DNA of 64,000 bases from Amoebophrya sp. A120 (Eukaryota > Protista > Dinoflagellata), in the NCBI GenBank assembly GCA_905178155.1, contig CAJINV010000004.1:9834625-9898624 (forward strand). Direction: 5' to 3'. This document shows positions 1-64,000 of this stretch, piece by piece. How positions within the stretch are numbered: position 1 is the stretch's first letter; each line of letters begins with the position of its first letter. Both the position numbers and the translations under genes were made by a program. Under the pieces are notes generated by a model. It saw nothing but the letters and a program-made list of their open reading frames with translations. It made no database searches and had not been told where the DNA came from.

Positions 1-195
1 TTGCAGGCAATTTGTCGTGCTGTTTCTCACTCTCAGCTGCCTCCTATCATGCTGAAGATGCAAGGCTTCCCCACGCCACCCAGCACTACAGTTCGCATCT
101 TTTCCCGTGTAGCATGACAAAGCTGATTTGTGACAACAAATCTGCATCACAGATTTCCGTTTAGATATGGGGAGGGGGGATTTTTCCGTTTGATA
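1..195. mobile_element. Introner family C, right part
   Basis: Ends ...GGGGAGGGGGGATTTTTCCGTTTGATA; homologous to 43476-43790. Confidence 0.8.
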
Positions 196-2996
196 CTGGA
201 CGGCAGACAAAGAGTTGGACTACGCCATGGGCTTTTCCCTGCGGAAGCTTGACGAGACAGAGGAAGGGAACAACAGTATGACGCGGTTGGAAAACCGCCC
301 CTTCAAGCAGTTTTTGAATGTCAAGCAGGACGTGGTGAAGCGGGACCTGCAAGCGGAGATCGAACGGGAAAAGCGGCAACCACAGATGGCAATGTCCCGA
401 ACAAATATGTTGGTGAATAGTAAACAGCGGTCCTCGACGGCGCTGAGTTACGATGCGAATGGTGCCAGCACACAACAACCGTCGCAAAGCGCGCCAGTGA
501 CGCCGCGGAAAAATTCTAACGGTGGACAGGACCAAGAAATAAACCAGCAGCAAACGTCCACCTTCGGCGCTGAGTTTGGTGCAGCGAAGTCGTCTGCTTC
601 GGTGGTTCGTGACTTGTATAATTCGCGCCGTAGTTGTGTGACGCCGAAGGTGAATACCAGGAAATCCCGGGCGGACCTGTGGAAACCCTTCCTGCCTACA
701 TCTACTACTGCAGCTAGCACCGCAGGGAGTGGGACGATTACAGGGCTAACTCCCGCGGAGGGCGCGGCTGCAAAAAGATCGGCTTCCTACACAACTAGCA
801 CTGCTGTTGCTGCGACCTCGGTGGTGGAACATCAGAAGGATGGCTCGACACATATGCAAGCCACATCACCTCGTGCTGCTGCTGCTCTTGAAGATGCTGA
901 TTTATTAAAAGCCACTCCCCGTCGGCAGCTGTCGCTCCAAACTGTAGTCCAGAACCTGCACACTGCGGTTCGAAGCGCCTCGGCGCGCAAACGACCGTTG
1001 ACGACCAAGACGGTAAAACCGAAAAACCTTCCGAACTTCACCGTGAACGATCACTACAGGCAAGCGGGTCCGTTTTCGAGCAGTTATCGGGCGGCCTTCG
1101 GCGTGCCCCGGCTCGACGTGTTGGGGAGGGGGCAGGAGGGCGGGGGAGTAAAACAAGGCGCTATTTATTTTACCCCTCGCGGTGGTTTATCTTCGAGTTG
1201 TACGCCGGGCAATATAATTCACGACAATAATTCTACGATATCTGCCCGGGCAAGAAGAGCACTTCAGGAGGACCTGTTATGAACTGCAAAAGCATCGTAC
1301 TTGTATAAATGCATTACAAATTTTCTCAGCATGAAAAATAAAATTTGTAATGCGGATTTACCTTAAGACAAAGATTTGTAATGCTAGACTTGCATTTATA
1401 CGAGTACGATACTTTTGCACGGGATACCTGTTGCTGCAGGACGAAAAGGTCGTGGGTCCGCCGGCCGTATCCTGTGCAAAAGTATCGTACTCGTATGGAA
1501 ATCATGCATTACAAATCCCTTTGTTAAGGTAAATCAGCATTACAAATTTTATTTCTCATGCTGAGGAAATTTGTAATGCATTTATACGAGTACGATACTT
1601 TTGCAGTTCATAGGCCGGCCGCATTGGCGGAAGCAGGGACCTGCACCGAGGGTACTATAACAGTGAGCAACCGATGAACCTCTGCGATTGGGGCGTGCCG
1701 AAGCAGCTGCTGAACTCGCTTCTTGCTTCGAGCAGTGCAGCTGGTACGGACAAGGACAACAGCAACATCTCCCGGCCCGCCTCGGCAAGGAACTCTAATA
1801 CAGGAAAAAATATAATCGCCGGCACAGCAGCTGACGCAAACAACAATACCTCTGCGCTATCGACACCCCGCACGACGTCGCCCCGCACCCAGAACAAAGC
1901 CATTCTAAAAACCGCGAGTGAGCTCTTGGGCCAGGAAGCGAGGGCGGAGCAGAGACGGAAATTGTCCGCGCGGCAGAAGGCCGCCCGGGCGCTGCAGGGA
2001 TACAGCGATATTAATGGCGAGGAGGATGTCTCCGAAGTTGCACTGTGTAAAACATCAAATAAACGAGATAAGATCTTCCGTTCGCCGCCGAACTTCAAGG
2101 ACGAGGTCGCGGAAAACCTGTACAAGTTTCAGCATCACGAAACGCCCTCCGAGTCGCTGCACGAGTTTTATTCCGGGGTGCCCACCACCCCAACCTCCGC
2201 CCTGATAGTAAAACAGCGCGCCGAGTCGGCTCCGCCGGTAAATCTAGTTGAAAATAACGACGAGAAAACAAGATCTGATCTCGTTGGAGTAGTACCAGAG
2301 CGAGGCCATGGCCAACCACAGCAGTCCACAGAGAGGCTCGAAGATGAACAGAGAAAAAACGACATCAAAAGGCTGAAAGTCCTGCACAAGCGACACCACG
2401 CGCACCTGCACCAGGTCGGCGGGAATTCGTATCACTACATGCGGAAGGGCAAGAACAATAATTTGAACTTCAAGCACCCGCTGATCACGCCCTACGCGCC
2501 GACCAAGGAGCTGACCCCGCGGTGGGACCGCGACAACCAAAACCGGGTTTTTGTCCCGTACCGAAACGTCCTGCCTGCAGGGGAGAGACTGCCGTCGAGC
2601 CCGAAATTCAAGGACAAAACGGTGGTCGGCACGGCGCACGGCAAGCAAATCCTGGTTTCCTCCCAAATTCGGCGCGTTCCAGCGGAGCCGATCCGGACGC
2701 CGCGCACGGTGTTCACGCCGCGGCGGGAGGAGGACGTGGCGAAGGACGCGCAAAAAGTGGCGACGCGCGAGCGGCTGGTGCTGACGCGGTCCAGGTTCGT
2801 GCACACGCCTAGGATCAGCGACAAGCAGGAGGAGGAGCGAAAGGAATTTTTCGCGAAGCTGCTGAAGAACAAGGAGAGCGACCTGATCGCGCGGAAGAAG
2901 ACACGACGGGTGGCCCTGGCGCACTTGCCGGGGCTGTCTGGTGTCACGGAAACCAGCCACAAGGCGTACGCGGAAATGATCGCGAAAGAGAAGTAG
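196..2996 (+). CDS. Hypothetical low-complexity protein, 5'-partial; coding segments ~196-1277, 1432-1467, 1618-2996 (one DR copy retained per junction)
   Basis: ORFs 215..1282 and 1674..2996 join in frame (...QEDL-LLQDEKVVGPPA-GRIGGSRDLHRGYYNSEQPMNL...) once elements 1278-1426 and 1468-1612 plus one DR copy each are removed. No recognisable domain. Confidence 0.75.
1278..1426. mobile_element. Introner family A
   Basis: TIR TATnnnnTGCAAAAG(T/C)ATCGTAC; DR CCTGT/CCTGT. Confidence 0.92.
1468..1612. mobile_element. Introner family A, opposite orientation to 1278-1426
   Basis: DR GGCCG/GGCCG. Confidence 0.92.
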
Positions 2997-4171
2997 GAGG
3001 GATTGGGGTCGTTGCGCCAGTACTTTATTGGGTATCTTTCTCGTGCTCTCCTGACAGATAGTCCTCATAGTTCCTGTCATATTCTCGTCCATTATTTTAT
3101 GTTTATGTTAGTAGTGGACTGATTTTTTGCTTCGCAATTACACATTCCTGGGCATCACCGCTATTGAAAAATCACAGTGGTGGTAAACTAAGTAGTAGTC
3201 AGTTTGTTGACCGTTCTTTTCGAAGTGTATTGTACCCCACAAATTTGTTTCTGGCTAGACCAGCACTCTGGATAGCAATTTTCTGCTCTCGAGAGTGCTA
3301 CGGTGCCGTCAACATGTAAGAACCGTTTCAAGATTTATATTCTATGTTGAGGAGAAATATTTAGAATGAGTCACCCCTCATGTTGATTTTGAATTCCTTT
3401 TTTTAACAGCGCTTCAAGTTCAACTTGAGCTCCTGCATTTTTTTTTTTTAGTTTTTTGAGTTTGCGTCCCCTACACCTCGTAATTTGTTCCATCATGATG
3501 TTCCCGTAAGAAAACAGTAAGAAAGAGGGCCAGGAGCGCGTTTGTCCTGCCTCTTTCGGCACCGGCGGTGTCCGCCGCTTGATGACCACAAGCTACTAAA
3601 GAGTGCAGTTTTTTTTTCATTCGATAGATGACGTTTGCGAGTTATCCTCGTCGTGAATTCGGGGACAGACGCATCAAGCCGCGTTGTTGAAACTCGATCG
3701 TCCGGTGAAGATAAACCGGTGACAACAGGTAAGGTGTTCCGTCCTGAAGAACTTGTACTTCAGGAAAGGTGGCAGCAGTGAGTTGATGCCGAATCTAGTT
3801 TCGGAACTTGGTACCACGATCATGATTCAGGAGGAGATTCTTGAATGCATTTGCTTTTCGTAGTTCACCTGTATCTGTAAAGATCTGTAAAAATCAGTTG
3901 TTCTTTTTGCTTCGAGTTCAAAGTCAAACAGGACGATCCGCATTTACTAGTTTTTCTTCTTGGTTTGTGGCTCCTTTGTGCGTGTATAATTGATAGATCT
4001 GGATGAAAACCGGTAACCCGACTCGTCTCATGATCAAGATCGATGCACAAGGGCGGCTGGAAAACGAAATAAAGCGCTCAACCTTAACATTAATCAAAAG
4101 ATAATCCACGTGTATCCGTCCTCGAAGAAGTAGTTTGCATTTGGTTCTTGAAGAGGTCAGCACAAGAAAAA

Positions 4172-7100
4172 ATGTCGAACTCCGAGGCCGAGCGTTGGAA
4201 GATCGAGGCAAATGAGCACCTGAAGAAAAATGAGCTCACCGAGGCGATCCTATGCAGGGCAACAGTTTTATCTTAGTCTTTTATACAGACGTGCAGGTGC
4301 AGCAGGAGAAGAGCCCAGCAGGACAAACTTCTGTAGAGAGTTTGTTCGGGAGGGCAATGCGTGAAGATTTCATCAACCATTGCATTTCAGGAGCGAAAGC
4401 TTCGCATATATTTTTGAAATGAGGAATGAAATTGATATGACGGAATGAAATTGATATGACGAGGATGACACCACCTGAGATATTGAAAAGTCGTGCGAAG
4501 ACTCCTCACTGTTCCTGTTCAAGAAAACCGTTTGCGCAGGATACGTTCAAAAATACAACAAGGCCATCACGCTAGACAACCAGAACCCGGTCTATTACAG
4601 CAACCGTTCCGCCGCCTGGGTATTCACTGCAAAAGTATCGTAATCGTATAAATGCATTACAAATCTCCGCAGCATGAGAAATAAAATTTGTAATGCGGAT
4701 TTAACTTAAAGAAAAGATTTGTCATGCATGACTGCAACACGAGTACGATACTTTTGCACAGGATACTGGGCGGCACAGAGTAAGTTCGAAAACGCGCTGA
4801 ATGATGCGGAAAAATGCCTGCAGATCGACCCGAAGTTCATCAAGGGATTTTCACGCATATCCGCAGGAAATTTTACCGTACATCTCCGCGGAATCGAACC
4901 AGTATCAAGCGGCGACCATGCATGACAAAGCAAAGCTGCTTCCTGTTGCCTAGTTTAGTTTTTCTGCATGATCGCAGTTCCTTGCATGCTTATGTTTTCG
5001 GTTTTTGCAAATCAAAACCTGCGTTGCAAACATGTGACACGGACGCCGTTGACGTTGTACTGATAGCCGTACAATGAATTTATTACGGTAAATGTGTGTT
5101 GCATAACGCAAAGGGCTCGCACTGTTTAAGCTTGGAAAAGTAAAGGAGGCGACGGAAGCCTACCGGGCGGGACTCATCTATGCATTGCAAAAGCATCATG
5201 TTCATGATCGTACTAGTATAATATTGAGACACATGACAAATTTTTCAAGAAGGAAAGCTTGAATTTGTGATGCAGATTGAGGTAGAAAATTAGATCTGCC
5301 ATGTTGCAAGACTGGTCGTTAACATTTTAATTAAGTATACGAGTGCGATTACTTCTTTGCTTTTGCACAGGATATCAGCTTGGACCCAACCAATGTCGCG
5401 CTACAGCAATCCATGGCGGCAATCACGAGGTCACAGAAGGGCAGTAGCGGGGACGGAATCCAGGGCTACTTGGCAAGCGTGGGACAGAAGCTGATGAACT
5501 CAGGCGGTATCATGATTTTTGGATGTCAGCTACTTCCACAGCTTCCATTCTGACCCTGAGCAAGTAGAGGGAGGCGATGACAGACAAATAACTTCCAGTT
5601 CCTTCTTTACCGTGTTGGTGCTTATCAGCTGCTTCTTTATCATCATTGTAGTTTCGCATCCTGTTCATGGCGCGCATTTTCAATCATGAAACAAACCGCA
5701 TAAAAACAAGAAGTATGTGACTATTTACGGCCGCTTCACCACAATGTCAGGTCTCGGCAAAGTGGTTATGTATGCAGTGGTTCTTTTTGGCTACTGGCTC
5801 TACATGCGTTTTACCCGGTCCGGCAAGACCGACGGGGACAACGCGCTGCCCGAGAAGCCGAAAGACCCCACCGCGCTCCAGCATGGCATGGTGTCCCTCG
5901 CACGAGACAAGGCCGTCCACATCGCGAAGCGTTCCGCGATCGTCCCAGCAGTTGTTTCTCCGCCTGCTTCATCTTCCCCCGGAGCTGCGCACCAGCACGC
6001 AAGCGAAGCGGAAGGCGAGGACACACAAGTGACCACGGACAGCAAGGCCGCCACGTCGGTGGTGCTGTTTTTCCACGCAACCGGCTTGTCTGGAGAGGAA
6101 CACGCCCACGTGGTCGCGAAATTCGAGAAAAGCTATCCTGTGCAGAAGCATCGTACTCGTATAAATGCATTACAAATTCCCTCAGCATGAGCAATAAGAT
6201 TTGTCCTGCGGATTTACCTTAGGAAGAAAATTTGTAATGCATGACTGCAATTACTACGCTACGAGTACGATACTTTTGCACAGGATAAAAGCAACGTGCT
6301 CTTGATAGACCTTCCCTGTCACGGGCGCAGCACGTGCTGGTTGTTATGGAAAAGAAAAACCGTGTTACGTGTAGGAGGTGTCTTGTGGAGGTGACCACAG
6401 CATGACAAATTCGCTCTGTATGACTCCTCTTCTTCAGAAAAAGCCTCTCATGTGCAGCTTCTACGAGTACGACGCCAAAGCGCATATGACATAAGAGGGC
6501 TTCCTGACTGGCCAGCATAACAAGTGTTGCATGCTTCGCATGTTTATACAAAGTTACACGACCACTATGATCTACAGTTTTTTTCTTGCATAGCTGCCTT
6601 CGGGCGACGACTGGGAAGAGCTCGGAAAAAAAATCGTCGGCGCAGATGCAACCTTGTTTCCCGAGGGCGTGCCAAAGACGCTGGTATTATGTTTTTCTTT
6701 TTTTACAAATTTTGTGGAGATGTACTCATCAATTTGGTTTGATTTTTGCTCACGCTAGCGGTCTTCTCACTGAACAATATTTATGATATCGGTTGCCGCT
6801 GTCGCTCGTGCTACCTAGTAGCGCTCCACCTAATAAGTACTACGCCGACAAGAACTTGGTGTCTTAGAACATCAGTATCAATGCTGCTCTACCAGGTCTT
6901 GTCCGGCTATTCGCCTTTCCTCACGCGTGGCATGTTTGACGCTTTCATGCCTGACTACGTGGTTTGGACAGGGCCAAACGAACTCTTTTCCAACAAGGAC
7001 ATCAACACCGTCGAGGACCTATCCTGTGCAAAAGTCTCGTACTCGTATAATTGCAGTCATGCATTACAAATCTTTCTATTACGGTCAATCCGCATTACAA

Positions 7101-8708
7101 GTTTTATTTCTCATGCTGAGGAAATTTGTAATGCATTTATACGTCGAGTGCGATACTTTTGCAGTTCATAGGACCTGAAATCCAAACTTCTCAGCGACGA
7201 GTCGACCTCAAAGAAGCACAATGAAGTAGGTCGCGAAAAAGCCTTCAACAAACTGCCAATAGGAATATTGCGCGATGCTACAATGCACATGGCGCATGGT
7301 AAGTTTTGTCTTCGAGGAAGCGATGTTTTTTTTTTTGGGACCATGTCGTGTGTTGGGTGACGAATGCTACTGAATACGCATGCTCATAGTCTCGTTGCGC
7401 ATTCACTTAGTACCTGGATTTAGAAGTAGCACGAGCTGCAAGTCAAGTTATTTACGTTAGGTCGAACAGGGGACGGGTTGCGAGTCCCTGTGCGCATGCA
7501 GCTTGTATATCGAAGTGCGCTACATCATGCCAAAAATAAATCTTATCACAGACAAGCGTCCACAATACACACTAGAGCGCAACGTGACCGAGCTGATCCT
7601 TCAGGAGGTCATCGTGTCTCCGACCCTTGTGTTGTCAAGTGAAAAACCGGAGTTAGACAAAGAGAAATATTAAACCGTAATCCATTCTTCTTCACCATAG
7701 GGGCGAGAGGGATCTAAGTACCTCGTGGTCGTCGTGTGGCTTGTGTCATCTTGCTGCACTAGTAGAGGACTAGCACAACATCGAGGATCTTTTTCTTCTT
7801 TGTTGCACTTTTCTTCTACTTGCGCTTCCCTGCCTATGAACTAGGTCAGGCTCAAGTATGTAGGTGATGGTGAAGGACACCGGTATTAAAAGTTCTTTGT
7901 CCCTTTTCATACACGAAGTTCACCAGTCTTAACAAGAAGATCGAGGCGAAGCAGCACCCGTGGGAACTCGTAAAATCTGAAAAATGGTTGAGCACCGTGC
8001 AGTACCCACTGAAAGAAAAAAAAGGGCCGTACTCGTCGTACTTCTTGCATTGTTGCATGACAGATTTCTCTTTCCGCACACTTTTCGTGCGGTTGCGGAG
8101 AAGGAAAGATATTATTTTGTATATGCAAGAGCATGTTGAGCAACTCCAAGTTTGCACGACAAGTATAATGCGCCAAGGTACTTTTTCGTTGCATATGCCA
8201 CAGTGGCTCGAGGAACAGGCGGATGCGGCGGGACAGCATACTATGGAGGTGTCGGCCTTGAAATCGACAAAGTCGAACAAATGATTTGTGACGCACAAGA
8301 AAATCAAAATGTTGACCACAATAAATTTCTAAGCAGCGCATGAAAAATTATCTCGATGCCTTGCTCTGTTCGGTATCGGTGCAATAAACGGGGCTGCTCG
8401 TGGCACATGCTCATCTTTGGCACCACTCGCATTCTTCCTCCTAATTCGGCTTGTTGTTGGCACCTGGCATCACTTGCCTGCTGTCCAATACAAGCATTCT
8501 GTGGGTGCAGCCAAGCACGCATGTCAGATCATTTTAATTTATGAACAAATTGGGCGATTTCATCGGGCCTGACGCTTCCATACAAGAAACTCAGGAGGAA
8601 GCAGACCACGCACCAGCAGCGGAGCCCGCAACAGGATCAATGCCTGACGAGGACCTCCAAGCTGATGACGGCAGTACGAAGGCCGGGGGCGGTGCGGACG
8701 AGTTTTAG
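4172..8708 (+). CDS. Multi-exon gene: N-terminal STI1/SGT-like TPR domain, transmembrane helix, alpha/beta-hydrolase-like domain, C-terminus ...GGGADEF*
   Basis: Spliced translation: MSNSEAERWKIEANEHLKKNELTEA..KYNKAITLDNQNPVYYSNRSAAWAAQSKFENALNDAEKCLQIDPKFIKGFSRKGLALFKLGKVKEATEAYRAGL (3 TPRs); TM segment VVMYAVVLFGYWLY; VVLFFHATG...NVLLIDLPCHGRS; TLVLSGYSPF; HPWELV..WL. Canonical GT-AG intron at 5507-5750. Exons between 7230 and 7930 are uncertain. Confidence 0.7.
4251..4543. mobile_element. Degenerate introner-like non-canonical intron
   Basis: TATGCA...GCAGGATA ends with an eroded DR; must be removed to join the TPR1 helices. Confidence 0.55.
4621..4765. mobile_element. Introner family A
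   Basis: DR CTGGG/CTGGG. Confidence 0.92.
4858..5105. mobile_element. Introner family F (diverged)
   Basis: TATCCGCAGGAAATTTTACCGTA...TACGGTAAATGTGTGTTGCATA; DR ACGCA/ACGCA. Confidence 0.85.
5179..5374. mobile_element. Introner family A (diverged)
   Basis: DR TCATC/TCAGC. Confidence 0.85.
6134..6287. mobile_element. Introner family A
   Basis: DR AAAGC/AAAGC; removal gives FEKS-NVLLIDLPCHGRS. Confidence 0.92.
6345..6592. mobile_element. Degenerate introner, family E-like
   Basis: Right end CAGTTTTTTTCTTGCATA matches the end of 14712-14925; DR GTTGT/GCTGC; frame restored. Confidence 0.6.
7020..7170. mobile_element. Introner family A
   Basis: DR GGACC/GGACC. Confidence 0.92.
8003..8195. mobile_element. 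Degenerate introner, family A-like
   Basis: TAC...GTACTCGT...GTACTTTTTCGTTGCATA; DR TGCAG/TGCCA. Confidence 0.55.
8242..8582. mobile_element. Introner family D (diverged)
   Basis: TATGGAGGTGTCGG...GAAATCGACAAAGT / CCTGACGCTTCCATA; DR CATAC/CAAGA. Confidence 0.75.
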
Positions 8709-9897: not shown

Positions 9898-12800
9898 ATG
9901 CGGAGTGCGGTCAACGAGAAATCGCTTTACCCAGGTGGGAGGGCCGCGTTGTCGACACCGCTTCGTTTTTTCGTGTGGTGCGGCCTCCAGTTTATTTGCC
10001 TGCAGCAGGTGGCGACCCCCGTGGTGGCTTTGGTTTTGGACGACGATATACCAATCACCCGCTCCCTACAAACCAGCCTCCAAGTTTTGCAAAGGAAATT
10101 GCAAATGTTTCGAGATGCGATGGTGGCGGTGCGAGGCCGCGACGGCGTCCAAATCAATGAGAAGGACCTGGACTCAGTCACGGACATCCGCTGGCTCCCT
10201 CCGGAGCACAAAGCGTTCTGGTATTCGCGCTATGCCGAGTTGAAGGCCGAATTCTGCCAAGTGCGGAGTACCAGAGCGACGTCGACATCAGGTGTTTTTC
10301 CTGCAGCAGGAGTAGGAGCTTCGTCGTCAATTTATCGCAAACAGACCCTTCCCCTGGACGCAAGCGTGCATATGTGCGAGTGGCAGCGGAGGGGGCAAAG
10401 GACTTGGGGTGACGGCCTCTCCGGGGAGGACCAACTAACTAATAGCCCTGACTCTGGCGACGAGCTCACTTTTAGTATCAAAGATGAAGAAGACCACAAA
10501 AGCAAAACCAATACAACTCCGCGGGCCGCTTGTGCACCTGATTTGTGCCGCGCGCTGGCAGAGTCCTGGAAACTGTGTCACGCGTTTCGAAGAAACGTCT
10601 ACCCTTACGTCGGAGCGAGCCTGTATGGATGTGTCAGAGTTGAAATCGACAAAGTTGAAATAATTTGTCATGCATAAAATGGATGCCAGTTGGAACCCAG
10701 TTTCCAAGTGGCGCATGACAAATTTCGGTGGTCCCTAAATCCAGTTTGTCATGCTGTTTAGGCAAAGAAGAGCGACTTTCTCATGCTACTTTAGCAGCTC
10801 GAGCTGTAACCCCAAGCAGGCTTACAATCGGCCTCACTTGCCTGCTCTGCCATACACGTGGCTCGGGTCATGCATTTTATGCATCACAAACTATTTCAAC
10901 TTTGACGATTTCAGTCCTGACGCTTCCATAGCCTGCTGCCCAACAAGGGGCACGAAAAGATGGTGTTCACGGCGGCGCGGCGAAGTCAAGTATGCAATGC
11001 AAAAGTATGGTACTAGTATGAATTGCATGACAAATTTTTCCTAGAAGAAAAATGAAATGTGTCATGAAGATTCAGGTAAAGAAAGCAGATCTGTAATGCT
11101 AGACTCGCACGAGACTCGAATAGCTTCGCCCGCTGGGTGTGACGTCGCAAACTTGCGCTAGAAGGAACATTTTTCAGAAAGTTCACCTCCCGCTGCGGGA
11201 CGCGCACGTTTTGCGTATCACCTGGGAACAACGCTGTTGCGTCTCGCGCCGCATCCCCCCGCGGCCTAGTGGATGCCTTTTCAAAGCATGTCGAGCCGGA
11301 AACGCGGCTAGAGACGCCTTCGCAGTGCGTTGCTGGTTGGAAATCTAGCAAGCGACGCCGTCTCAGTGCATTTCTAGCCGGAAACCCACCTAGCGACGCC
11401 GCCTCAGGGCGTTTCTAGCTAGAAAGCCAGCTAGCGACGCCGCCCCGGTGTGTGTCCAGCAGGGAATCCAGCTAGCAATGCCGTCTCAGCACCTTTCTAG
11501 CTGAAAGGATGGAAATACAGCCGGAAAGGCAGCGGCAGCGTGTTTCCGGCTAGAGATCCAGGTGGAAAGGCATCGCCAGCGCGTTCCCAGAACGAAATCC
11601 AGCGGGAGAGGCATCGCCAAAGCGCCCCCGGCTGGAAGAAATTCAGCCGGCCGCGTCTTTGCGGAGTATTTCTAGCGTGAAATGGAGCCGGGGACGCCTT
11701 TTCAGAGCATTCCTAGCGGGAAACCCAGACGGAGGCGCGTTTTTTTCTAGCCGGGAGGAAATCCAGCAGGGAGGCAGTGCATTACTTAAAGAGGCATCCG
11801 CAAGCAACGCGCCTCCAGCTGGAAATCCTTCGAGGGCGCCGCTTCGAAGAGTATCCAGCTGAAGACGCCGCGGCAATGGAAATCCAGCTTGCTGGAAACG
11901 CCTTTTCGAGGGAAATCCAGACGGAAACGCATCGAGAAGGCTTTTTCAGCGCTTTCCCGCCCGACCTTTTCAAACAAAGTGGCTGCAGCTGGATTTCTAG
12001 TAGAAGACGGCTTTCGATTTCTAGCTTTGATTCCAGTTGTGGGGAACATTTTGAAAAGGCATCCGCGGCGCATTGTTAGCTGGGATTCCAGGTCAAGGCG
12101 CCTCAAGGTGTTGCCAGGTGGATAGATTTGCGGGCGGAGATGCCTCGGGGCATTTCCAGGCGTCAAGAATCGCAAGGCAGCCGATTTCTCTTTGATTTTC
12201 CGGGGTTTCTTCCCGCGTTAGCAAAACTCTGCTGGCTACCCGGGGAAAGGTTTGCCTAGAAGGATACTGGGTAGGTATTGGGAAGCTATCGGGAAGGGGT
12301 GGCAGAGCTGAAGCTCTTCTCGGGCTGTTGTGCTTAGCGCGGCTCTTCAGGCTACCCGGGGCAAGGATCTTCTAGTAGGGTCGCGGGAGGGTGTTCATTG
12401 GGATAGTGGAAATGTATTGGGGATTTGTTTTTTTTATTTTTTCCCGAGTTGCTGTGTTTAGCACAGCTATTCTGCCTACCCGGGGCATGGGTTTTCTAGT
12501 AGAATGCTGGGAAGGTATTGATGGAGGCGTCCATCTGCGCCATCGTTGCACGCCTTCCAGGTGCAGCGTCCGTGGCTGCGGTTGCCGCCTTCCGTCTCCG
12601 TCGGCTGCTCGCGATGTCTCCGTGCGCGCGATCAGCTGAAGCTTTTTTTCCTTAGGGATTTCAGTAAGAAAGTGACACGCGATCGCGCGGATCCGAGTGA
12701 CCCCCTACGACACCCCCCCCGCCCTTTCGAGCGATATGATGACACTGCGCCCCAATCCGTATGTTGAATAGTTTTTGTTTTTAAGATGAGGACTTAGATG

Positions 12801-17163: not shown

Positions 17164-17299
17164 ATGATGCGTTATTTATATTTTAGTGAGTAGCAGGGCC
17201 TGAAGTTCGGGGCTTCTGCTTAAAGAAAAAGGCGTCTGCAGTAAAATATCTGATTCTTTGTTATTTTAAAGCAGTCGCATACTAGTATGCGCGCTAGAG

Positions 17300-39490: not shown

Positions 39491-40082
39491 GTTGCCGATA
39501 TCTACTAAATAGGGCTTGTCTGTCTATGCAAAGTACTCTGCGATAGTAGTTTTGGTGTGTTGCTTGCGCCTCATATTTCGCAATGTCATTCGTGATACAA
39601 TTGAGCGATCGGATATACCCACTAGCAGCTCCCCATGTACAACTTTCTTCTATCTTTGTGAAAAGAAGGGTATTACGAGTCGACGATGGCACCACGTTTT
39701 TACTCACCTATGTTACATTTAAGTTTGTCCCTTGACCGAGTTCCTGTTGTCTTCGGGTTCGGCATTGATTTCGGCATAGCAGTCCTTGTCATTTGGCCTA
39801 GACAACAAGGAGAAATCTTTAAGTCAATATTAGGAGGTAACGAATTTCTCGATTCGGTATCTGTATCTGTAAGCGCCAAACATCAACACGATGAGCGAAC
39901 CGCCCTGGATTAGTCCATCCTCCTCTCCGTCGGTGCTGGTTTCTGGAGCATAGAAGCCACCGGAGCGCTCGCAACCGCATCTCCCGTCGAGGTCGAGTCG
40001 GAGTCAAGGCAAAGCGTTTTCTTCTCCTGATTCATCCACCCCAGGAGCCACGTAGCCTCTCCGAGAAACACCTCAGCCCGCC

Positions 40083-53322: not shown

Positions 53323-55875
53323 ATGTCTGTAACAGCGCCAACTCTACTTTTTACAACGTCGTCTGCGGGAGCCGCTACGGCTCCCATAGACATGGCCGGC
53401 CAAGATGTGGAAATGGCGACGCCTGAAGAGAATAAACAAGTCCCGGCAGGAAAAAATGAAATCTCCAACCCGAACGCCACAATCCCCCTTTTCATTTCTG
53501 AATTCCACGACGAGGCTCTTCGCGGACTACACTTTGCCATGCGCAAGAAACGACTCAAATGCGACAACCCCATCCTCCTGGTTCACTTCGACTCGCACCC
53601 GGATTTGGCCGTGTCGCAGGATTTGACCGCGGACCTGTGTCGGACGCCGGAGCAGCGGGAGATGGTGCACCGGAGAGCTGCTGCAGTTGGAGGAGGTCCA
53701 GATGGGGTGAATGAGCAGGATGACGCGACACTACCAGAGGAACAGCAAACTGACGTCCGCGATCTTTACACGGCCCTCCGCACGATTGAGGGCGGGATCG
53801 CCAGCTGGATCCTGCCCGCGGTCTTTGCCGGCATGATCGACGAAATCTGGTGGTTGAAGCAGCCGTTCTGCCGACAGATTCCGGAGGGGATCTACCAGGG
53901 AAGGGTGGGTGGTGCGACGAAAAGCAGTGCGTCGTCGTGTGTCGGTCCTGAGACTCGTGAAGAAGATCATGATGGGAAAAGAACGGACGAAAAGCAGCAA
54001 GAAGTACTGAAAGTGGATGGAGATTTTGCTGATTTGTGGTACTACGAAGGGGACGAGAAAGTCCAGAGACCAAAAGTACCGAAACCTGATTCTGAACCGT
54101 CTGTAGGAGTCGTACACGACATCAAAGACGAGGACACCCTCTCCGTTGACGCGAAACATTGGACGCTCGCTGTTCTGGAACGCCCGCAGGCAATTGCGCT
54201 CGCGGACCAACTGCAGCCTGCAGCTGTTGGGAGTGCTGACAAGCAGCCGCCGGTTCTTGTCAATCCTGCAGGAGAAATCCTAGCGAACGAAAATGCCGCA
54301 GAGTTACCTTCCGCCCCGGCCAGAAAGGAGTGGGCCCTGGACATCGACCTCGATTATTTCACGACCCGGAATCCCTTTACCATGGGGTTATCGGATGAAT
54401 TAGTCCAAACGCTGCAAGACGCGATCGATATCTGGGAGCACGCGTACCCGGAGAAAGACTTTCCGTTTGACACCACCTGGGCAGACGAGCTGGAGAACGA
54501 GAATTGGGAAAAATGCATGGAAATTCTGTTCCCGTACTTAGTTGAGCTCGAAACACAGCCACCCTTTTGCGCCGTACTGCCCGGCCTTTTCTTGTTCACA
54601 GATGGAGACCCTGGCAATAGTTCACCAGAACGCTTGCCGCGAAGCGACCTGGTTCGCCACGCCACCGCAATGAAAAACGCTTTGTTAGACTGGAAACGGC
54701 TCCGCCCCAGCACCGCAGAAATGGCGGTTTTGCTCGAAGCTGGACACATGCTCACACTGCCGCAGAACGTGCCATGTGATCGGCCTGGAGATCAAGGCAA
54801 AAACGAAGGGGATTTTTTTCGTCCGAAGGTAAAGGAAATCGAGGATCTTTTGCGGAGCATCATGCTCTCTGGTGCGACGAAAATGGACAACCAAGGTCAA
54901 GACCAGCAACGAGCGGCTGGAGTTCCGTCGAGTGAAAAGCATCTTCCTGGTCTTCCTATTCCCAACGCAGTAGAACCTGCACCGCAAGAACTACTCGAAG
55001 ATCACCCCATAATTTCGTCACCTCCAAGACTTCCGACAATCTTTTCCAGCGACACACCAAAGGACTACCAGACCTACTCGCATATTCGCACCACTCCCGT
55101 CGGGTTTCCAACGAAGCCGCAGCGGTTGTTGGCTGAGGCGAGGAAGTTAGGAACGCCGTCAAACCTGCAGCCGTATCCCTCGGTGATAACGATCGCACGG
55201 ATATCAAATGCAAATATGTCTGGGTCTGGAAGATTCTGAGACCACTTGTCATGCTAGTTTGGCATGACTCTAAACTCTGTATTGCGTGCCCGCGAAAAGG
55301 TGGTCTTGTCTGTCATGCAAAAACGTGGTTTCTCATGCGGAGTACGCAACTCAGAAGCACCAAAAAACTTGTCATGCTGGGGAGTGCACCACAGTGTGCT
55401 CACTATTGCTTTCCTTGCATCACAGGTTTCCAGACCCAAACATTTTTGCAGTTGATAACGGAGCTGCTCCGACAACTTCCTGCCGATGCGAATCTCGGCG
55501 CAGCTGGAAACCGCAGTGATTGAAATGTTGGAGCGAGTATGAAATGCAAAAATGTCTGGGTCTGGAAACTTGTGATGCTAAAATGTGCATGATGAAAACA
55601 CTTCCGAATGCAGTCCGGCATGACAACTTCCCAAAACGCTTTCTCATAGGCAATCCGCATGAGAAACTGCGATTTTGCATGACAAAAGAGGCTGCGACTT
55701 TTGTTCGTTATGCAATACAGATTTTCTAGGTATGGAGAGCTAGCATTACAAGTCCCAACCTTCCAGACCCAGACACTTTTGCAATCCATAACGAGTGTAT
55801 GGTGACGGTGGGGATAGTGTTGTCCCCGGCGGGGGCAAGAAAATTGAGCGGATGTATGCGGACGAGCTGCAGTAG
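53323..55875 (+). CDS. UPF0489 (C5orf22-like) family protein
   Basis: Motifs LVHFDSHPDL, IASWILPAVFAG, LDIDLDYFTTRNPF. After removing two elements the frame reads ITIARSCSDNFLP...ETAVIEMLERVY, with stop at 55873-55875. Confidence 0.85.
55202..55457. mobile_element. Introner family B
   Basis: DR ACGGA/ACGGA; splits ITIAR-S. Confidence 0.92.
55538..55790. mobile_element. Introner family B, opposite orientation to 55202-55457
   Basis: DR GCGAG/ACGAG. Confidence 0.92.
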
Positions 55876-56578: not shown

Positions 56579-59500
56579 ATGCCGGGCAAGAACACCGTCG
56601 ACCGCAAGAAGAAGCGGGAGAACGTCCGCCATTTCCGGGTGGTGCAGAAACCCATTCTGGATGACAACGACGAGCAGAAGAATTACCTCGAGCCGTACCT
56701 CCCGATCAACGTGCGGAAAAACAAAAAACTAGACGAAGAAGAGGAGGAAAAACTTTTGTACAAGCCAATCAAAGGAGTCGATCTCGATGCGAAAAAGATT
56801 TTCGGTCTGGAGCAAGAGGACTGCTCCGAGGAGGAAAACGAGGATGACGAACAACACCAGCCGAAAAACAAGCGGCTGAATCAGGTTTTCAACAGCAAAA
56901 CCGAAGGCTACATCCGCGGCGCAGACTACGATTCCGATGAGGAATTGCTAAATGAGGAAGTTGCGGAGGAGGAAACCTACTTTCCCAACGATGGGTACGA
57001 CTACAACCAGCACTTGCGGGTCATGGACGAGCGGTTCGTGCAGAAGGCGGAGCAGCCGGTGACCACCCGCGCGGAGAAAATCGCGAGCAAGGTGAGTGCC
57101 AATTTGCCGGTGCAGTTGGTGCAGACCATGGAGGGCATGAAGGCGCCCATCGAAGAGGTGAAGCAGAAGTTGCAAAAGTCGGACAAGATCGACATTATGG
57201 AATTGCGAGACGCCGATACCGGCGAAACCGCGGGGACTGTCCAGGAACTGACAAAGCCCGTGACGTTTCGGGACGAATTCGATTCGAGGGTTGCCGCGGC
57301 GGAAGAGGTATAGAAGATACATGAGATACAACATCTGAAATCAGTTTTGATTTTTCGCTTTGTCCACTTTCACTTTCTCCTTTACCTTTTTGGAGCGCCA
57401 GCATAACCAAGACAATATTGAAGGTCCTCGTAATTGCCATGAGCAGAAATAATTATCGTGACGTTCTGTATCTGTTCCCAAACGACGTATCCTCAGCTTC
57501 CCGCCGACGTCCTAGAGGCTCTGGAGATGGACTACGAGGAAATTCTATCAAATGTAAAAATGTCTGGGTCTGGAAGAATGCAAGATTTGTCATGCATATT
57601 TTTCATCACCCATGATGCCTGTAATGCTTGGCCTAGCATCGCAGACTTTTAGAGGGTTTCCTGATGCACCTTCCGCATGAGAAATGCCCTGTCCGTGTAG
57701 CAAAATCTGTGCCCCTCTTGCTGGTCATGCTATACAAAACTTTTTTAGAGTCCAAAAACAGCATGACAAGTTGCAATCTTCCAGACCCAGACATTTTTGC
57801 AGTTCATAAATTCCCGAAGAAGCCGAGGGAGACGCTTTCCAGGAGTGGGACGACTTTTTCCACGTGGCCGGCGGCGTGGAGGACAAGCTGACCCAGCTGT
57901 GGGGCCAGGAGGGCGCGGAATTCGCGAAAATGGAGCGCGTGCGTCGGGGGGTCGGGATTTTGAATCTGCGTGCGGGGGAAAGTTTGTTCGGAAATACTAA
58001 CAAAACGAGTTGTGCTGACGGCGAGCAGTCCGACGAGGAGGAGTCGGATAATTCTGACGAAGACGACTCCGACTCCGACGGAACTTCCGATGAAGCCGAC
58101 CAGGACGAAGATGCAGAAGAAGACCTCGACCCGGAACTTGCGAAGCTCTACGCCGACGTGGACAAGCTGGATGACCAGCGACTCACGGCGAAGGAAACGC
58201 TGACAGAATTCCGCTTGCGGCAGATGCTCGAGGAGGGCTACGACGACACGAATCTCGGCGAATTGGACCCGGAGGAGGTGTATGCACTGCAAAAATGTCT
58301 GGGTCTGGAAGGTTGATGGAACTTATCATGCTAAATCTGAAGCATACAAACATCTGTGTTGCATGATTCCCAAACGCTGCCCAATTTTGATCAAGTTGAG
58401 AGGCAGTTTCTCATGCAGGACAGGCATGATAGGGATCTCACGGAATCTCATGCTAGGTCCTCCATTACAGATCATATGGGTCATGGAAAGCCTGCATGAC
58501 AAGTCTAGCATCTCACGGAATCTGTCATGCTAGGTCCTCCATTACAGATCATATGGGTCATGGAAAACCTGCATGACAAGTCTAGCAAAGTTCCAGACCC
58601 AGACATACTTGCATTTGATAAGGTGAATGGGGAGAAGGAGATGGAGGAATTCGACGACATTTTGGATGAGTATTTGGAGGAAAATATCCTGAGTAAAAAC
58701 GTACCCACACCATAGTCAAGATGGGGAATCGGCTAGACAAATCCACAAGCTTTGGCTGTTTTGCATGACAAATTTGGATTCGTAGTGTGATCCTGTTTCG
58801 CTAGCTCAGAAGCATTACAGATCTAGCCTACCATACTGATTCTAGCATCACAAATTCCAAAACACGAATAGAAAATGCTTCTCATAGGGCTCCGCATGAG
58901 AAACTTTTTTGGCATGCAGAATTGCGTGACAACTCTGGGGTGGGTACGTTTTTACATAGGATAGAAAAAGCGACCGTGAAGCGGTTCTGGCAGCAGGAGA
59001 TGCTGACGCTAAACCCCGGGAAGAAAAACAACTCCGCCAACAACCAATTTAGGGCCATGGTGGCCGGCACGAGCGACGACTGCTGTATAAGAACTACTGG
59101 TGCTGGTGTTCACGATGTTCTTGATGAAATAGACCCAGCAGGAGCCGAAGTAGACCAGATGAACCTAGTTCCTGCTGTATTGTGAGGAAAAATGTCCCCA
59201 CCCCATAGTCGAGATGGGAAGTCTGCAACACAAACCCGGAAGTTTTGGGAGTCACGCATGACAAGTTGCCCTCTGTATTGTAGTGCAGTTTCGCAAGGAC
59301 ATCCGCATCACAAAGCCAGCTTCTCATCCTATTTGCAGCATCACAAATTCCAAAACACGACTGGAAATGGCTCTCATGGGGATGCGCATTACAAGTCTTC
59401 CTGTCTTCGCATATCTGCATTACAACTCTGGGGTGGGGACGTTTTTACTCAGGATATGCTGCGCCGGGCGGGAAGTTTGACATTGACCAAAGCACCGGCC

Positions 59501-60598
59501 GTATCCTCTGCAAAAGTATCGTACTCGTACTAATTGCGTTTATGCATTACAAATTTTTTCGTGAAGGCAAATCCGCATTACAAATCCAATTTGTAATCCT
59601 AAGTGACTTTGTAATGCAATTTATACTAGTACGATAGGATACTTTTGCAGTTCATAGGCCGACGGGTGATCATGAAGGAGCAGTTTTCGCTAGAAGACCC
59701 ATTGGAGAAAGGCTTCCGAGATTCGAAGAAATCCAAGCGCATGAAAACGGTGGAGGGGAAGACCAGGCTCGGGCCAGGATTATTGGACTGTGTAGAGGAC
59801 TATGAGGAAGCTGGGAGGGTAAGTAAAACTGATGTGGTCGTTGTTGAGCAGGAGGACAAAAACGCAGCATCTGCTTCGTCTGACACCGAAGAGGCTGATG
59901 TTCCTGCGACGGAACATAGGCCAGACGCGTTGACAGAGAACCAAGGCCAAGAACACGATCACCAGTGCTCCTTCTACGAGAAGCCGACAAAGGACATTAT
60001 TCTCGCGCGGGTAGAGAAGATGGCGATGGAGGAAAAGGACGAGCCCGAGACGGAGGACGAAACAAACAAAAAAGTTCTCAAGCTTCTCGGGTACAAGGAA
60101 AAAACCGGTGTGGAATTCGATTGCGAAACGATTTTATCCACGCGGTCAAACCTCTCCAACCACCCGGGGAAAATTCTGGTTCAGTCGAGTAAGGCGAAAA
60201 AGAAACAGGCGAAAAAGAACGGGTTGCTGAGTGCAAGTGGGGCGGGTGGAGGTGGTGGTTCTCTTTTGGGCGACATTGCTGAGGAGGACGAGGAACAGAC
60301 GACAGATGATGAGGAGGACGAGGACTCAGACGCGGATAGCAACGCAGGAGACAACTCGTCCGATGCAGAGGAGGACGAGGAATTGCAGATTGTGGAGATT
60401 CCCGACAGAAAGAAAGGCGAGACGAAGGAGGAGAAGAAAGCGAGAAAACAAGCCGTGAAGCAAGCGCGGAAATTGTGTCGACAAACGAAAAAGGAAAACA
60501 CGGCTCTGTTTGCGCAGGAGGCGGCGAAACGGAAAAGAGAGAAAAAAACTGCGACAACCGGAGATGTGCGCCAGGGAGCGAGGGTCTTTGCGATTTAA
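56579..60598 (+). CDS. LTV1: LTV1 40S ribosome biogenesis factor homolog
   Basis: Motifs YFPNDGYDYNQHLR, DCETILSTRSNLSNHPGKI and RKKGETKEEKKARKQAVK. One canonical intron (57308-57496) and 5 introners. Confidence 0.85.
57546..57808. mobile_element. Introner family B
   Basis: DR AATTC/AATTC. Confidence 0.92.
58281..58620. mobile_element. Introner family B with an internal ~75-bp tandem duplication
   Basis: DR AGGTG/AGGTG. Confidence 0.92.
58685..58963. mobile_element. Introner family J
   Basis: TATCCTGAGTAAAAACGTACCCAC / GTGGGTACGTTTTTACATAGGATA; DR GAAAA/GAAAA. Confidence 0.92.
59178..59456. mobile_element. Introner family J
   Basis: DR TGCTG/TGCTG. Confidence 0.92.
59502..59656. mobile_element. 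Introner family A
   Basis: DR GGCCG/GGCCG. Confidence 0.92.
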
Positions 60599-61339: not shown

Positions 61340-64000
61340 ATGGCCTTCCACAAAACCGCTCCCGGTTTCCTCGAGGTCCAGGAGGTGCCCACTTTCGACC
61401 GGAAAAACGTAAAAGTCCCGAAAACCTCCGTCGTGCGCTCGCATGAAGTCCAAAAGTGGATCCAGAAGCGCCGGGGTGCACTGGCCAAGCAGAAAGCCGG
61501 AGCAGGTTCCAGCTCGAGCTCCTCTTCTTCCAGCACTCCCTTCGGCAATAAACAAGCTTCCCCGGACAAGAAAAACCTCCAGGCCGGCGAGGAGGGCTTT
61601 CTCCGGTTGCTCTGGAAGACCATCGACTACGACGGAAATGAGTACATCGACGCGGACGAACTGGAGCTCATTGTCGGCGCGATGCGGTTGTGCTTCTACT
61701 CTGTTTTCTATTTCGGCGAAACGTCCGACCGCCAGCGGTACCGGACGGTGCGCGCGCGGCAGCAGCTCCAGTCGCAGGGCGGAATTCTAGGGGGCGCGGG
61801 CAACGAGGCGAAGATGCTCGGTTTTTCCTCCAACGTGCCGCTGTTTCTCGGCAAGGACAAGGTTGGCACCATGAAGGACATGCTGGGGGCCACCCACGCG
61901 CAGCAGACCACCGGCGCGACCATGTTCGACGCGGCGAGCGTGTTGATGCAGCAGGAGGGCAGCAAGCCGGCGGGCGGGCTGAAGAGCAGCGGGTTTGCGA
62001 AGTTCCGGAAAGCCGCGGCCGGGGGTGCTGGTAATGATGCGAACAACAATGGCTCATCCCCGAACGGCAGGTCGTCCACCGTTTCCCTAGACGGGATGGG
62101 CACTTCTTTCTCCACCGCGATGAACGAAAAAGAATTGACGCCAACCACCTTAGTACCCGAAAACGCCACGGCCATCAAGGAGCCGCTCGACCCGCTGCCG
62201 GACGACGCGGCGATGGAGAGTCTGCAGCGGAGGCTCGACACGATTGAGATCCGCTTGTCCGACAAGGAAATTGCGGCGAAAAACGCCCACGCGCGGAAGT
62301 TCCGGGGGGAGTTCGAGGGCATGCTGGACGACATCAACGACGGGGTGTCGTTTCTAGCGGACAAGGCCGATTTGGGCGAGGACTACCAGACTGAGTTGTC
62401 CAACCAACAAGTCCAACGCTACGAGGACAGCGGCGCGGGGTTGGTGGACGAGCTGCACCAGAAAATCACCTCGGAGGAGAGGATCGGGGAGATTTTGAAG
62501 GAGCTCTCCTTTCTACGAATTGCAAAAGTATCGTATTCGTATAAATGCATTACAAATTTCCTCAGCATGAGAAATGAAATTTGTAATGCGGATTTGCTTT
62601 CAGAAAAAAATTTGTAATGCATTATGGCAATACGAGTACGATACTTTTGCACAGGATACTTTCGCGGGTACTGCAACGTGAATGACGACGCGCAGAAGCT
62701 GCAGGACCAATTTATAACCTGCTCTGGTGTTTTTACAATCTCAAACGTTACGTATAGAGTTTGGAAATCTGTGATGCAAGATTGCATGATCTAGCCAAGT
62801 CTCATAGGATTGCGCATGACAAGTTCCGGAGCCCTAAACCCCATGACAATCTGGCGAAATTTGTATTGCAAAAAGTGGAATGCTTTGCGAGTCTTTCATG
62901 CTCATCATGCAACACGACAAATTCCAGATTCTATTGTAACGTTTGGGATTGTAACGTTTGAGCAAGTCATACAATTCCCCGGGTTTTTCGACTCGTTCCT
63001 TAACAACGTGATCCTGCAGTACCGCGGCGAGTCGGAGCTGCAGGCGCCGCACAGCTCGGACGGCGGCACGCAGTTGCTGAAGTCGCACCGAGCCATTTTG
63101 GACGCGGTGGACGACATTCACTTGAAGCTGCAAAAAAAGTCCGGGGAGAAGCCGATCCTGTGGCCGGAGTTTGTGGACATCTTGCGGCCCTTGTGCCGCA
63201 AGGAGATTGACGAGGATTTGATGTACGCGGCGTTACCCTTGCACCTGCTCGTGCAGGACTGTCTCCGGAAAAAGGAGTTTGCGCGGTTGGGCACGGAATA
63301 CAATTTTCGCACGCAGTATCCACAGTAAATTTCCCGTACATCACGTACAAATGCCGTTTCTGCATGGCAAAGCTTCCCTTCGATCCTGTTCAGCATGACA
63401 AGTTGTCTGCGCTAAGTTAGTGAAATTTGTGATGCATCATGTTGTACATGTACGGGAAATTTGTATTGCATACGCAGCAATACGCGGAGGCGTACAAGAT
63501 GAAGTTGAAACGTCCGGTCGATACCGATCTTCGGTCCCGCTCCCCGACGATGAAGACCGGGGAAAACCTCCCGTCGAAGTGGTTCGCCGGGAAGAAGGGT
63601 CAAAGAGTGTCGCAGCTGTCGCCACAGCGGAAATCGCCGGTAAAAGAGTGGGAGAATTACGTCGAGGAGGAGAGAATGGCGAAGTTGTTACGGAAAAAGA
63701 ACAACCGAGAGAATGGTGAGGACGAAGACGAAACGATGATCTCCTCCCCGCCTTTGACCCCGGCGAGCTCGGTGAGACGGTCCCAGTCCCCCTCTTTAGT
63801 CACCACGACCACCGGCACCGCCGCGACCGGGTCGCAGGCGACGCGGAACAGCCAGCGAAACAAGCACGTCCTGCAGACCGCGAACGCCAGCTTGCAGCAT
63901 CAGTTGTCGAGCCACGAGCCGAGCCTGCAGACCACGCTAACCGGGTCAAAAACGACGATCACGTCGGACGAGCAGGACCAGAAAAAGCAAGTGCCGGTGG
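61340..64000 (+). CDS. EF-hand-containing protein, 3'-partial
   Basis: EF loop DYDGNEYIDADE. Frame continues across elements 62514-62658, 62713-62971 and 63317-63472 (LSF-RGYC, DQF-PGFF, RTQ-QYAE). Confidence 0.7.
62514..62658. mobile_element. Introner family A (TAC start)
   Basis: DR CTTTC/CTTTC. Confidence 0.92.
62713..62971. mobile_element. Introner family H-related
   Basis: TATAACCTGCTC..TTACAATCTCAAACGTTAC / GTAACGTTTGGGATTGTAACGTTTGAGCAAGTCATA; DR CAATT/CAATT. Confidence 0.88.
63317..63472. mobile_element. Introner family F
   Basis: DR CGCAG/CGCAG. Confidence 0.92.

Follow-up and report, generated by a model that had tools for sequence, protein, structure and literature searches.

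TAT…ATA introner elements in 64 kb of Amoebophrya sp. A120: removal with one copy of a 5-nt direct repeat from probable transcripts, and a junction inside the repeat

Introner elements of the dinoflagellate Amoebophrya sp. A120 are repeated introns bounded by inverted and direct repeats, and we analysed them in a stretch of 64,000 nt from its genome (GenBank assembly GCA_905178155.1, contig CAJINV010000004.1, forward-strand positions 9,834,625 to 9,898,624; hereafter the window, numbered from its first base). In the text of Farhat et al. (2021, PMC7789003), the inverted repeats open with TAT, followed by seven variable nucleotides and a run of three or more A, the direct repeats (DRs) measure 3-5 nt (5 bp in the example of Fig. 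S19), and the repeated introns, 29,850 in number and about 240 nt long on average, account for 17% of the assembly. The splice sites are called variable there, the border position being stated as unknown in the Fig. 3 legend, and A120 is described as keeping nearly all spliceosome proteins together with U2, U4, U5 and U6. Our literature search yielded no paper resolving the excision mechanism of A120-type introners.

Two other systems are close in organization. In Euglena, the nonconventional introns follow the code N3-CDG…CHG-N5-6|R, with CAG/CTG pairing and fixed spacers (Nomura et al. 2025, PMC12501133); according to a review (PMC11282704), they are released in circular form and no lariats arise. 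In Fritillaria borealis, introns lacking GT/AG ends are removed by the U2-type spliceosome (PMC13326754), and these non-canonical introns carry terminal inverted repeats (TIRs) and target-site duplications (TSDs) (review PMC11282704). Among mobile elements, IS3EU/GingerRoot and IS481EU have TA..TA or TNT..AYA termini, with TSDs of 6 bp versus about 4/15/25 bp (PMC10045372), and TIRs with integrase-like open reading frames (ORFs) have been reported for A120 introner family 38 (PMC12130899).

The elements of the window are A120-type introners, presenting TAT, seven nucleotides and at least three A, a DR, removal outside the GT-AG rule and repeated families, and the system is already known. What the present analysis adds is a strict 5-nt DR rule, removal in both orientations, a shared internal motif and a junction register from a handful of sites; the text of Farhat et al., figures 3 and S19-S25 aside, gives no strict 5-nt DR, fixed UAU register, removal in both orientations or shared motif. 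With the Euglena introns, as described in the available parts of these sources, the elements have in common paired trinucleotides at their ends, spacers fixed in length but free in sequence, bordering DRs, GT-AG introns in the same gene and a machinery that is unknown. However, Euglena is an unrelated lineage whose code (CAG/CTG, spacers of 3+5, a purine at the exon start) is not found in the window elements, which have TAT/ATA, spacers that add up to 5 and no preferred base, such that the geometry alone is alike. TIRs and TSDs are likewise shared with the introns of F. borealis, whereas the latter, in the parts of the reports available, prefer AG-AC and AG-AT ends, obtain their 3' site from the target sequence, and occur with a retained U1 and a duplicated U2AF; in the window, both outer dinucleotides are free except at +2. 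The TA..TA termini of IS3EU/GingerRoot are present here, with a duplication of 5 instead of 6 bp.

Fifty complete and three partial elements were identified, close to the roughly 53 proposed by an earlier sequence-only reading of the same DNA, and element sequence makes up 22% of the window (Table 1). A first search for paired TAT…ATA ends that have a 5-nt DR and match as inverted repeats at 10/15 or more positions returned 29 pairs, compared with 0-3 in each of 20 block shuffles, and the 50 complete elements were then curated from the end profile and sequence reading. In this profile of 58 ends, TAT is present in every one and A occupies positions 11-13 in 49-54 of them. Exact TAT…ATA termini occur in 47 of the 50 elements, the exceptions being a TAC start in two and an ACA end in one, in line with the single grammar of TAT-starting TIRs proposed for all families. 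The proposal of about ten families is approximate: five clusters (17, 14, 3, 3 and 2 members) and 11 singletons were found, with family A lying forward in nine copies and reverse in eight. The partial elements comprise one truncated at the window start, its right end lying at 195, and two right ends in non-coding DNA that have no partner (3626 and 8195); their left ends look decayed, as expected if it is splicing within exons that constrains the ends.

The DR is perfect over 5 nt in 33 of 50 elements and carries one mismatch in 13, two in 3 and three in 1, while a perfect repeat of 3, 4 or 6-9 nt is found in none and of 2 nt in four. Its sequence is free of base preference in the window and in the oriented metagenome elements described below, with at most a weak A/T centre (0.49 vs 0.40), so the proposed 5-bp repeat of free sequence holds. 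Across the oriented elements, the first DR base is a third codon position in 91/193 cases, vs 57 and 45 for the other two positions (p = 1.4e-4), a codon-phase bias that could be explained by the weak A/T-centred target preference instead of a splicing signal.

All ten genes of the window are interrupted, as had been proposed, by 2-11 elements each. The genes all lie on the plus strand, a layout that resembles the unidirectional clusters reported for Amoebophrya. Removal of the elements with 5 nt gives long frames in all ten, of up to 2083 codons. When the element is removed with 2, 5 or 8 nt, 49/50 sites fall within an open frame of at least 100 aa, compared with 32-39/50 for other lengths. 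Left in place, 48 elements bring an in-frame stop, and the remaining two shift the frame, with a stop just downstream. Sliding the borders allows a GT-AG reading in 3/50 and a GC-AG reading in 2/50. Thus, the sequence-only reading was correct that deleting an element with one repeat restores the ORF, that the genomic ORFs stop in or soon after the elements, and that most of these cannot be read as GT-AG.

Its claim that conserved motifs are interrupted needs a small correction at one of the three sites named. The element at 45162 splits SALD in the translation, a motif that we take to be the ABC D-loop, and the element at 31245 lies between exons matching Pfam ankyrin. The element at 55202 does interrupt the UPF0489 gene, but outside the matched domain, since within exon 53404-55200 it is residues 30-173 that match in Pfam, roughly 1.3 kb upstream of the element. 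Pfam matches among the window genes also include a weak EF-hand and a weak PDZ. A protein search with exon 5753-6133 gave no match among 385 candidates, and a search of a representative library gave three matches for this exon, one of them useful; the closest homolog of a window gene is protein P0001 of Amoebophrya sp. A25, at 34% identity.

Four sequencing runs were compared with 22800-36100, the interval to which the RNA junction evidence is confined. Contigs of run X4, probably RNA, have gaps of 653 and 966 nt that are the exact sums of element plus 5 nt for three and four elements, a gap of 490 nt corresponding to one element plus 5 nt together with GT-AG introns of 128 and 203 nt, and a gap of 153 nt corresponding to one GT-AG intron. 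From this arithmetic, the unit of removal is the element plus 5 nt, and not plus 2 or 8. All eight elements spanned by the contigs are gone together with one 5-nt repeat, and one probable transcript has lost both elements and three canonical GT-AG introns. Family A is removed in both orientations, forward at 30043 and reverse at 31245 and 35190.

A metagenome scan extended the sample to 135 distinct loci, all from one assembly, in which these element families recur; at one locus, the encoded protein shares 98% identity with one of A120. The finder used was blind to the DR and, on the window, recovered 36 of the 50 elements with one false pair. In the metagenome loci it returned 371 elements with a median of 262 nt, 280 of them with a perfect 5-mer, although the DR played no part in their selection, and 0/371 with a 6-nt repeat. 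Pairs with a DR match of 2 or fewer (33/371) were dropped as likely mispairs, leaving 338 with at least 3/5, of which 143 were oriented by reading frame. Relative to transcription, the two large families lie 13/12 and 19/16 in the two orientations. No autonomous copy or transposase ORF was found in the 570 kb of loci, and no transposase-like long ORF was seen in the longer elements. Among seven long candidates, the two with strong TIRs were translated and have no long ORF, and one of 5.5 kb (TIR 12/25) spans ordinary genes. Five pattern matches in viral contigs have neither a paired end nor the internal motif, and were judged to be chance. Short, with TIRs and a TSD of constant length, devoid of coding capacity and present in many copies, the elements have the properties of miniature inverted-repeat transposable elements. 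The transposon origin and the match to the introners of Farhat et al., both put forward earlier, are supported.

Sites at which the two DR copies differ reveal which copy reaches the mRNA, and 17 of the 50 window elements are of this kind, a share that would probably amount to thousands across the genome. The upstream copy is retained at position 1 of 28425 and position 2 of 28582, where the downstream copy would create TAG, and the boundaries of RNA pieces (an end at 30933 and a start at 29472) show that 30937 keeps the upstream base at position 2, and 29319 at position 3. At 44838, the Ala of the upstream copy presumably fits the consensus after the ABC signature. Position 5, by contrast, comes from the downstream copy in 3/3 testable sites. 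At 6345 the upstream copy gives Ser and the downstream copy Pro, which is the residue in P0001, and at two sites of locus L066 the annotated A120 protein P0005, a gene model from an assembly other than that of L066, has Arg and Ser, both downstream alleles. The junction is therefore inside the DR, positions 1-3 being supplied by the upstream copy and position 5 by the downstream one, bearing out the proposed rejoining within the duplicated 5-mer.

This places the cut after base 3 or, more probably, base 4. At position 4 of site 5179, the Leu of P0001 is weakly closer to the upstream Ile than to Ser, and the alignment score with P0001 peaks, also weakly, for a cut after base 4 (313 vs 309 and 305). 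Junction peptides of L066 match P0005 in 11/16 cases for cuts after 0-4 bases and in 9/16 after 5, the remaining 5/16 fitting under no register. L066 itself (about 2460-9830, minus strand) holds a 661-aa gene with at least 16 elements and canonical introns, several of its exons being shorter than 35 nt. Choosing the coding DR copy by eye gave Trp and Ser at two L066 sites where P0005 has Ser and Arg, and such sites were excluded from the counts. Stop-codon polarity in the metagenome loci gave 0 informative sites among 21 mismatched elements (143 oriented).

Only with a cut after base 4 does every one of the 193 oriented elements have T at intron +2, such that the intron would start N-UAU. Canonical donors of this organism are GTAT in 8/12 and GTA in 11/12, three of the 12 being confirmed by RNA arithmetic and the others inferred from frames or P0005; the register exon|N-UAU…AUA-NNNN|exon thus likely mimics the GUAU donor. 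The 5' T is invariant while C or G is accepted at +4, in the manner of GTAC donors, and changes of the outermost versus innermost terminal base number 0/6 at the 5' end and 3/2 at the 3' end (p = 0.06, two orientations being uncertain). In Table S4 of Farhat et al. (PMC7789003), all nine predominant non-canonical pairs of A120 have T at +2. In the favoured register, GT-AG is present in 6/193 elements, so that as a class these lack the GT/GC-AG termini of U2-type introns, and no purine bias follows the junction. The earlier claim that removal is independent of splice-site sequence survives for the outermost intron bases, which are free, but not for TAT/ATA, which is conserved and in this register would resemble, as N|UAU, the G|UAU donors of the organism.

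In the window, and free of finder bias, this conservation amounts to 3/300 changed terminal bases vs 22/250 changed DR positions (p = 1.2e-5). Private substitution rates are 0-1.7% for TAT/ATA, 2.7-4.8% for positions 8-14, 12-13% for positions 4-7 and 7.6-8.2% for the body, each end having a TAT-n4-TGCAAAA-like terminus. Positions 4-7 thus vary above the body rate, and the same few alleles recur there in families that are unrelated and at either end, a hint that ends may have been shuffled or converted. Inside the elements, the motif GCAT[G/T/C]A[C/G]A occurs in 165 copies in 49/50 elements, in both directions and usually several times in each, compared with nine copies in the other 49.8 kb, three of them within partial elements; the GCATGACAA motif is this motif of the elements. 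It changes at a rate of 3.6% vs 8.1%. Part of the conservation of ends and motif may stem from past selection for transposition and from the finder's own filter. An Rfam search of 1-39900 gave no matches.

We lean, if modestly, towards a reading in which a relaxed U2-type spliceosome takes these non-autonomous TIR elements out of the pre-mRNA, with their paired or protein-bound ends as guides, in the predicted register exon|N-UAU…AUA-NNNN|exon. F. borealis provides the precedent that a U2 spliceosome can remove non-GT/AG introns. A more specific version, held with somewhat less than even confidence, is that a single code, exon|N-UAU…hairpin…AUA-NNNN|exon, is read throughout, palindromic ends and GCAU[G/U/C]A[C/G]A recruiting a spliceosome without U1 that uses only donor bases +2 to +4 and an acceptor measured by distance. 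In the main reading, a putative DDE/integrase-like transposase would insert the elements with a 5-bp target duplication, and like ends, with the motif in both directions, make the transcript similar whichever way an element landed. The ends would then pair or bind an adaptor protein, and in this way define the intron in place of U1 and the 3' AG. A cut after DR base 4 would bring the first U of UAU to intron +2, as in GUAU donors, the 3' junction would be set by distance, 4 nt past AUA, instead of by sequence, and the first A of the terminal AUA (-7) is a candidate branch point. For strain A25, whose repeats start with TTA, U at +2 is likewise predicted.

Several observations weigh against spliceosomal removal. 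A polar spliceosome predicts unequal arms, yet constraint at positions 1-3 is symmetric between the 5' and 3' arms (5/339 vs 4/339), as is motif change between directions (72/1961 vs 79/2100). The arms carry no signature of pairing on the RNA strand (G-U 344 vs A-C 334), and the sense-strand fold is the lower in 94/188 elements, no better than the antisense. Neither G at +1 (65/193) nor a terminal AG (16/193) is clearly enriched, and no branch-point consensus was found in the elements. U1 was undetected in A120 in the text of Farhat et al. (PMC7789003), whose Table S4 also has A at -2 in eight of the nine pairs, and T at +2 in that table could reflect aligner or strand conventions. On the RNA side, X4 was classed as RNA by a tool's guess only and its contigs are cDNA-derived, and the raw RNA runs X9 and X10 gave 11 and 2 reads on 22800-36100 with no junctions. 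The status of P0005 noted above bears on position 5, and position 4 is informed by one weak homolog site and by motif consensus, donor mimicry being lost with a cut after base 3.

Symmetric constraint, equal G-U and A-C counts and the absence of a sense-fold advantage together mean that recognition looks sequence-specific and two-fold symmetric, and not purely structural. Recognition of paired ends, as proposed from the sequence, is accordingly borne out in part: the elements fold strongly (z -4.6 and -4.1), but TIR positions 4-8 are paired in 547/964 cells and the G-U excess expected of RNA pairing is missing. These same features bear on the foremost alternative, rather unlikely in our estimate, in which a separate Euglena-like machinery, either an endonuclease with a ligase or a second unusual spliceosome, reads paired TAT/ATA at the base of a hairpin with spacers of 1+4 or 2+3. 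Symmetric constraint, stable folds and free bases at +1 and at the 3' end agree with it, as do a pair of terminal trinucleotides and free spacers like those of Euglena introns, which in the published account need N3-CAG…CTG-N5 and pairing, and the undetected U1. However, the favoured register has U at +2 and copies the GTAT donor, a likeness for which a separate machinery has no need, pairing often fails at TIR positions 4-8, with no bias of G-U over A-C, and no such enzyme was found, none having been searched for.

Constraint that is sequence-specific and strand-symmetric also resembles binding to double-stranded DNA, and an improbable alternative is that a transposase-derived, DNA-bound protein joins the ends in chromatin, the element being skipped or marked during transcription and the RNA realigning on the downstream repeat. 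The repetition of the internal motif in both directions would suit such binding, and DR mismatches are fewer at positions 4-5 than at positions 1-2 (17 vs 29, p = 0.10). A pure skip would keep the upstream copy through position 5, yet the downstream copy is present in 3/3, and sites with two or three DR mismatches still restore frames; we know of no precedent for such skipping. Very improbable is excision from DNA in the transcribing stage, in the manner of ciliate internal eliminated sequences, which the precise removal of an element with one repeat resembles and with which symmetric constraint is compatible. Contigs of run X1 extend from exons into and across elements at a flat depth of 41-50, which argues weakly against excision since contigs drop rare forms, and 371 elements are in place in the metagenome assembly. 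No split between germline and soma is known to us in Amoebophrya, and an excision would then be inherited. Scarcely credible, finally, are slips of reverse transcriptase over DR-flanked hairpins ("falsitrons"), for which a hairpin with a short DR, present here in cDNA-derived evidence, is a known artefact signature (in the part of PMC8240250 available), for real mRNA would then keep elements that bring in-frame stops (48/50) or frameshifts (2), whereas removal rebuilds conserved proteins in agreement with the A25 homolog, the termini are under purifying selection, and the RNA has the upstream copy at positions 2-3, where a slip predicts the downstream one.

Some elements and intervals of the window show further structure. 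Between 24400 and 26890, a PDZ-like module is duplicated inside the 2083-codon gene, and its copies carry elements at nearby but differing positions (24439 vs 25653; 26038), which suggests insertion after duplication. The family A element at 10991..13686 contains about 2.5 kb of tandem arrays (11130-13600; units of 41, 106, about 120 and 14 nt) with its ends and repeat intact, and its removal still gives a 1286-codon frame. Within the element at 48993-50127, a nested inverted-repeat element (49405-49977) has 24-nt arms that are 88% complementary and 525 nt apart, and contains GTCAATTGAC-like internal repeats. The GC-rich intergenic stretch at 37100-39900 holds a near-perfect 24-nt hairpin (38059-38107), a 26-nt inverted repeat (37112-37382) and open frames of 200-241 codons, of which the one tested had no Pfam match.

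Table 1. Positions of elements, canonical introns and selected host genes in the window. DR, direct repeat.
Feature	Position	Strand	Remarks
Element cut by window start	1..195		Resembles 43476 family; right end ATA at 195
Family A element, reverse	1278..1426		DR CCTGT
Family A element, forward	1468..1612		DR GGCCG
Unpaired right end, non-coding	3611..3626
Singleton element	4251..4543		DR 2/5 (GATCC/CGTTC); sole element without internal motif
Family A element, reverse	4621..4765		DR CTGGG
Singleton element	4858..5105		DR ACGCA
Element	5179..5374		DR position 4 mismatch (Ile/Ser); A25 homolog Leu, leans to upstream copy
Family A element, reverse	6134..6287		DR AAAGC
Element	6345..6592		DR copies differ at 2 and 5 (Ser/Pro at 5); Pro in A25 homolog, as in downstream copy
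Family A element, forward	7020..7170		DR GGACC
Unpaired right end, intergenic	8180..8195
Element of 3-member family	10624..10930		DR GCCTG
Family A element, 2.7 kb through tandem-repeat DNA	10991..13686		DR TCAAG
Singleton element	14712..14925		DR TTCCG
Family B group element	16262..16513		DR GAGCT
Element	22934..23108		DR 3/5
Family A element, forward	24439..24591		DR position 2 mismatch, synonymous
Element of 3-member family	25653..25965		DR ACGAC
Family A element, forward	26038..26187		TAC start; DR position 1 mismatch
Element	28425..28531		Downstream DR copy would give TAG at position 1; upstream copy coding
Family B element	28582..28843		Downstream copy would give TAG at position 2; GT-AG in favoured register
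Element	29319..29468		RNA contig piece begins 29472; position 3 from upstream copy
Family B element	29736..29988		Element + 5 nt missing from RNA contig
Family A element, forward	30043..30210		Missing from RNA contig
Singleton element	30356..30572		Missing from RNA contig
Element	30937..31175		Missing from RNA contig; position 2 from upstream copy
Family A element, reverse, ankyrin repeat region	31245..31393		Missing from RNA contig
Family B element	31483..31733		DR position 4 mismatch, synonymous; missing from RNA contig
Element of 3-member family	31795..32101		Missing from RNA contig
Family A element, reverse	35190..35343		Missing from RNA contig that also lacks three GT-AG introns
Family B element	41846..42110		ACA end; DR position 5 mismatch (Leu/Ile)
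Family A element, reverse	42434..42606		DR position 1 mismatch, synonymous
Family B element	43160..43424		DR AGATC
Element	43476..43790		DR GGTAC
Family B element	44838..45100		DR position 2 mismatch (Ala/Val), after ABC signature
Family A element, forward, splits SALD	45162..45312		DR GCTGG
Family B element	45380..45642		DR mismatches at positions 1 and 4
Family A element, reverse	45742..45895		DR position 4 mismatch (Asn/Lys)
Family B element, 1.1 kb, with a different inverted-repeat element nested	48993..50127
Family A element, forward	50210..50355		DR ATTCC
Singleton element	50439..50623		DR TGGAT
Family B element	51796..52059		DR TGCGG
Family B group element, UPF0489 gene, outside Pfam match	55202..55457		DR ACGGA
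Family B group element	55538..55790		DR position 1 mismatch, synonymous
Family B element	57546..57808		DR AATTC
Family B element, internal duplication	58281..58620		DR AGGTG
Element of 2-member family	58685..58963		DR GAAAA
Element of 2-member family	59178..59456		DR TGCTG
Family A element, forward	59502..59656		DR GGCCG
Family A element, reverse	62514..62658		TAC start; DR CTTTC
Singleton element	62713..62971		DR CAATT
Element of 3-member family	63317..63472		DR CGCAG
Canonical GT-AG intron, GTATG donor	33991..34143	+	Gone from same RNA contig, internal control
Canonical GT-AG intron, GTACT donor	34939..35066	+	RNA arithmetic
Canonical GT-AG intron, GTAAG donor	35430..35632	+	RNA arithmetic
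Ankyrin-repeat host gene	27494..37105	+	11 elements, 3 canonical introns; all RNA junction evidence comes from this gene
TPR, membrane and hydrolase-like host gene	4172..7400	+	7 elements; homolog P0001, Amoebophrya sp. A25
ABC half-transporter host gene	39890..46157	+	8 elements; 1293-codon frame once elements are removed

A G at +1 and an AG at the 3' end are thought to be chemical constraints on the spliceosome. If it is the spliceosome that removes these elements, then it works without either of them, and if it is not, Amoebophrya would be the second case, after Euglena, of a genome-wide splicing code of hairpin and ruler. Should the single code hold, any insertion, of any sequence and in either orientation, would be a perfect intron, which would explain how tens of thousands of coding insertions are tolerated. 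The fixed register makes the mechanism testable, since the 5' cut, a candidate branch A at -7 and a ruler of 4 nt are all specified by it, and as a rule it would allow gene models to be corrected in these parasites, whose hosts are bloom-forming algae.

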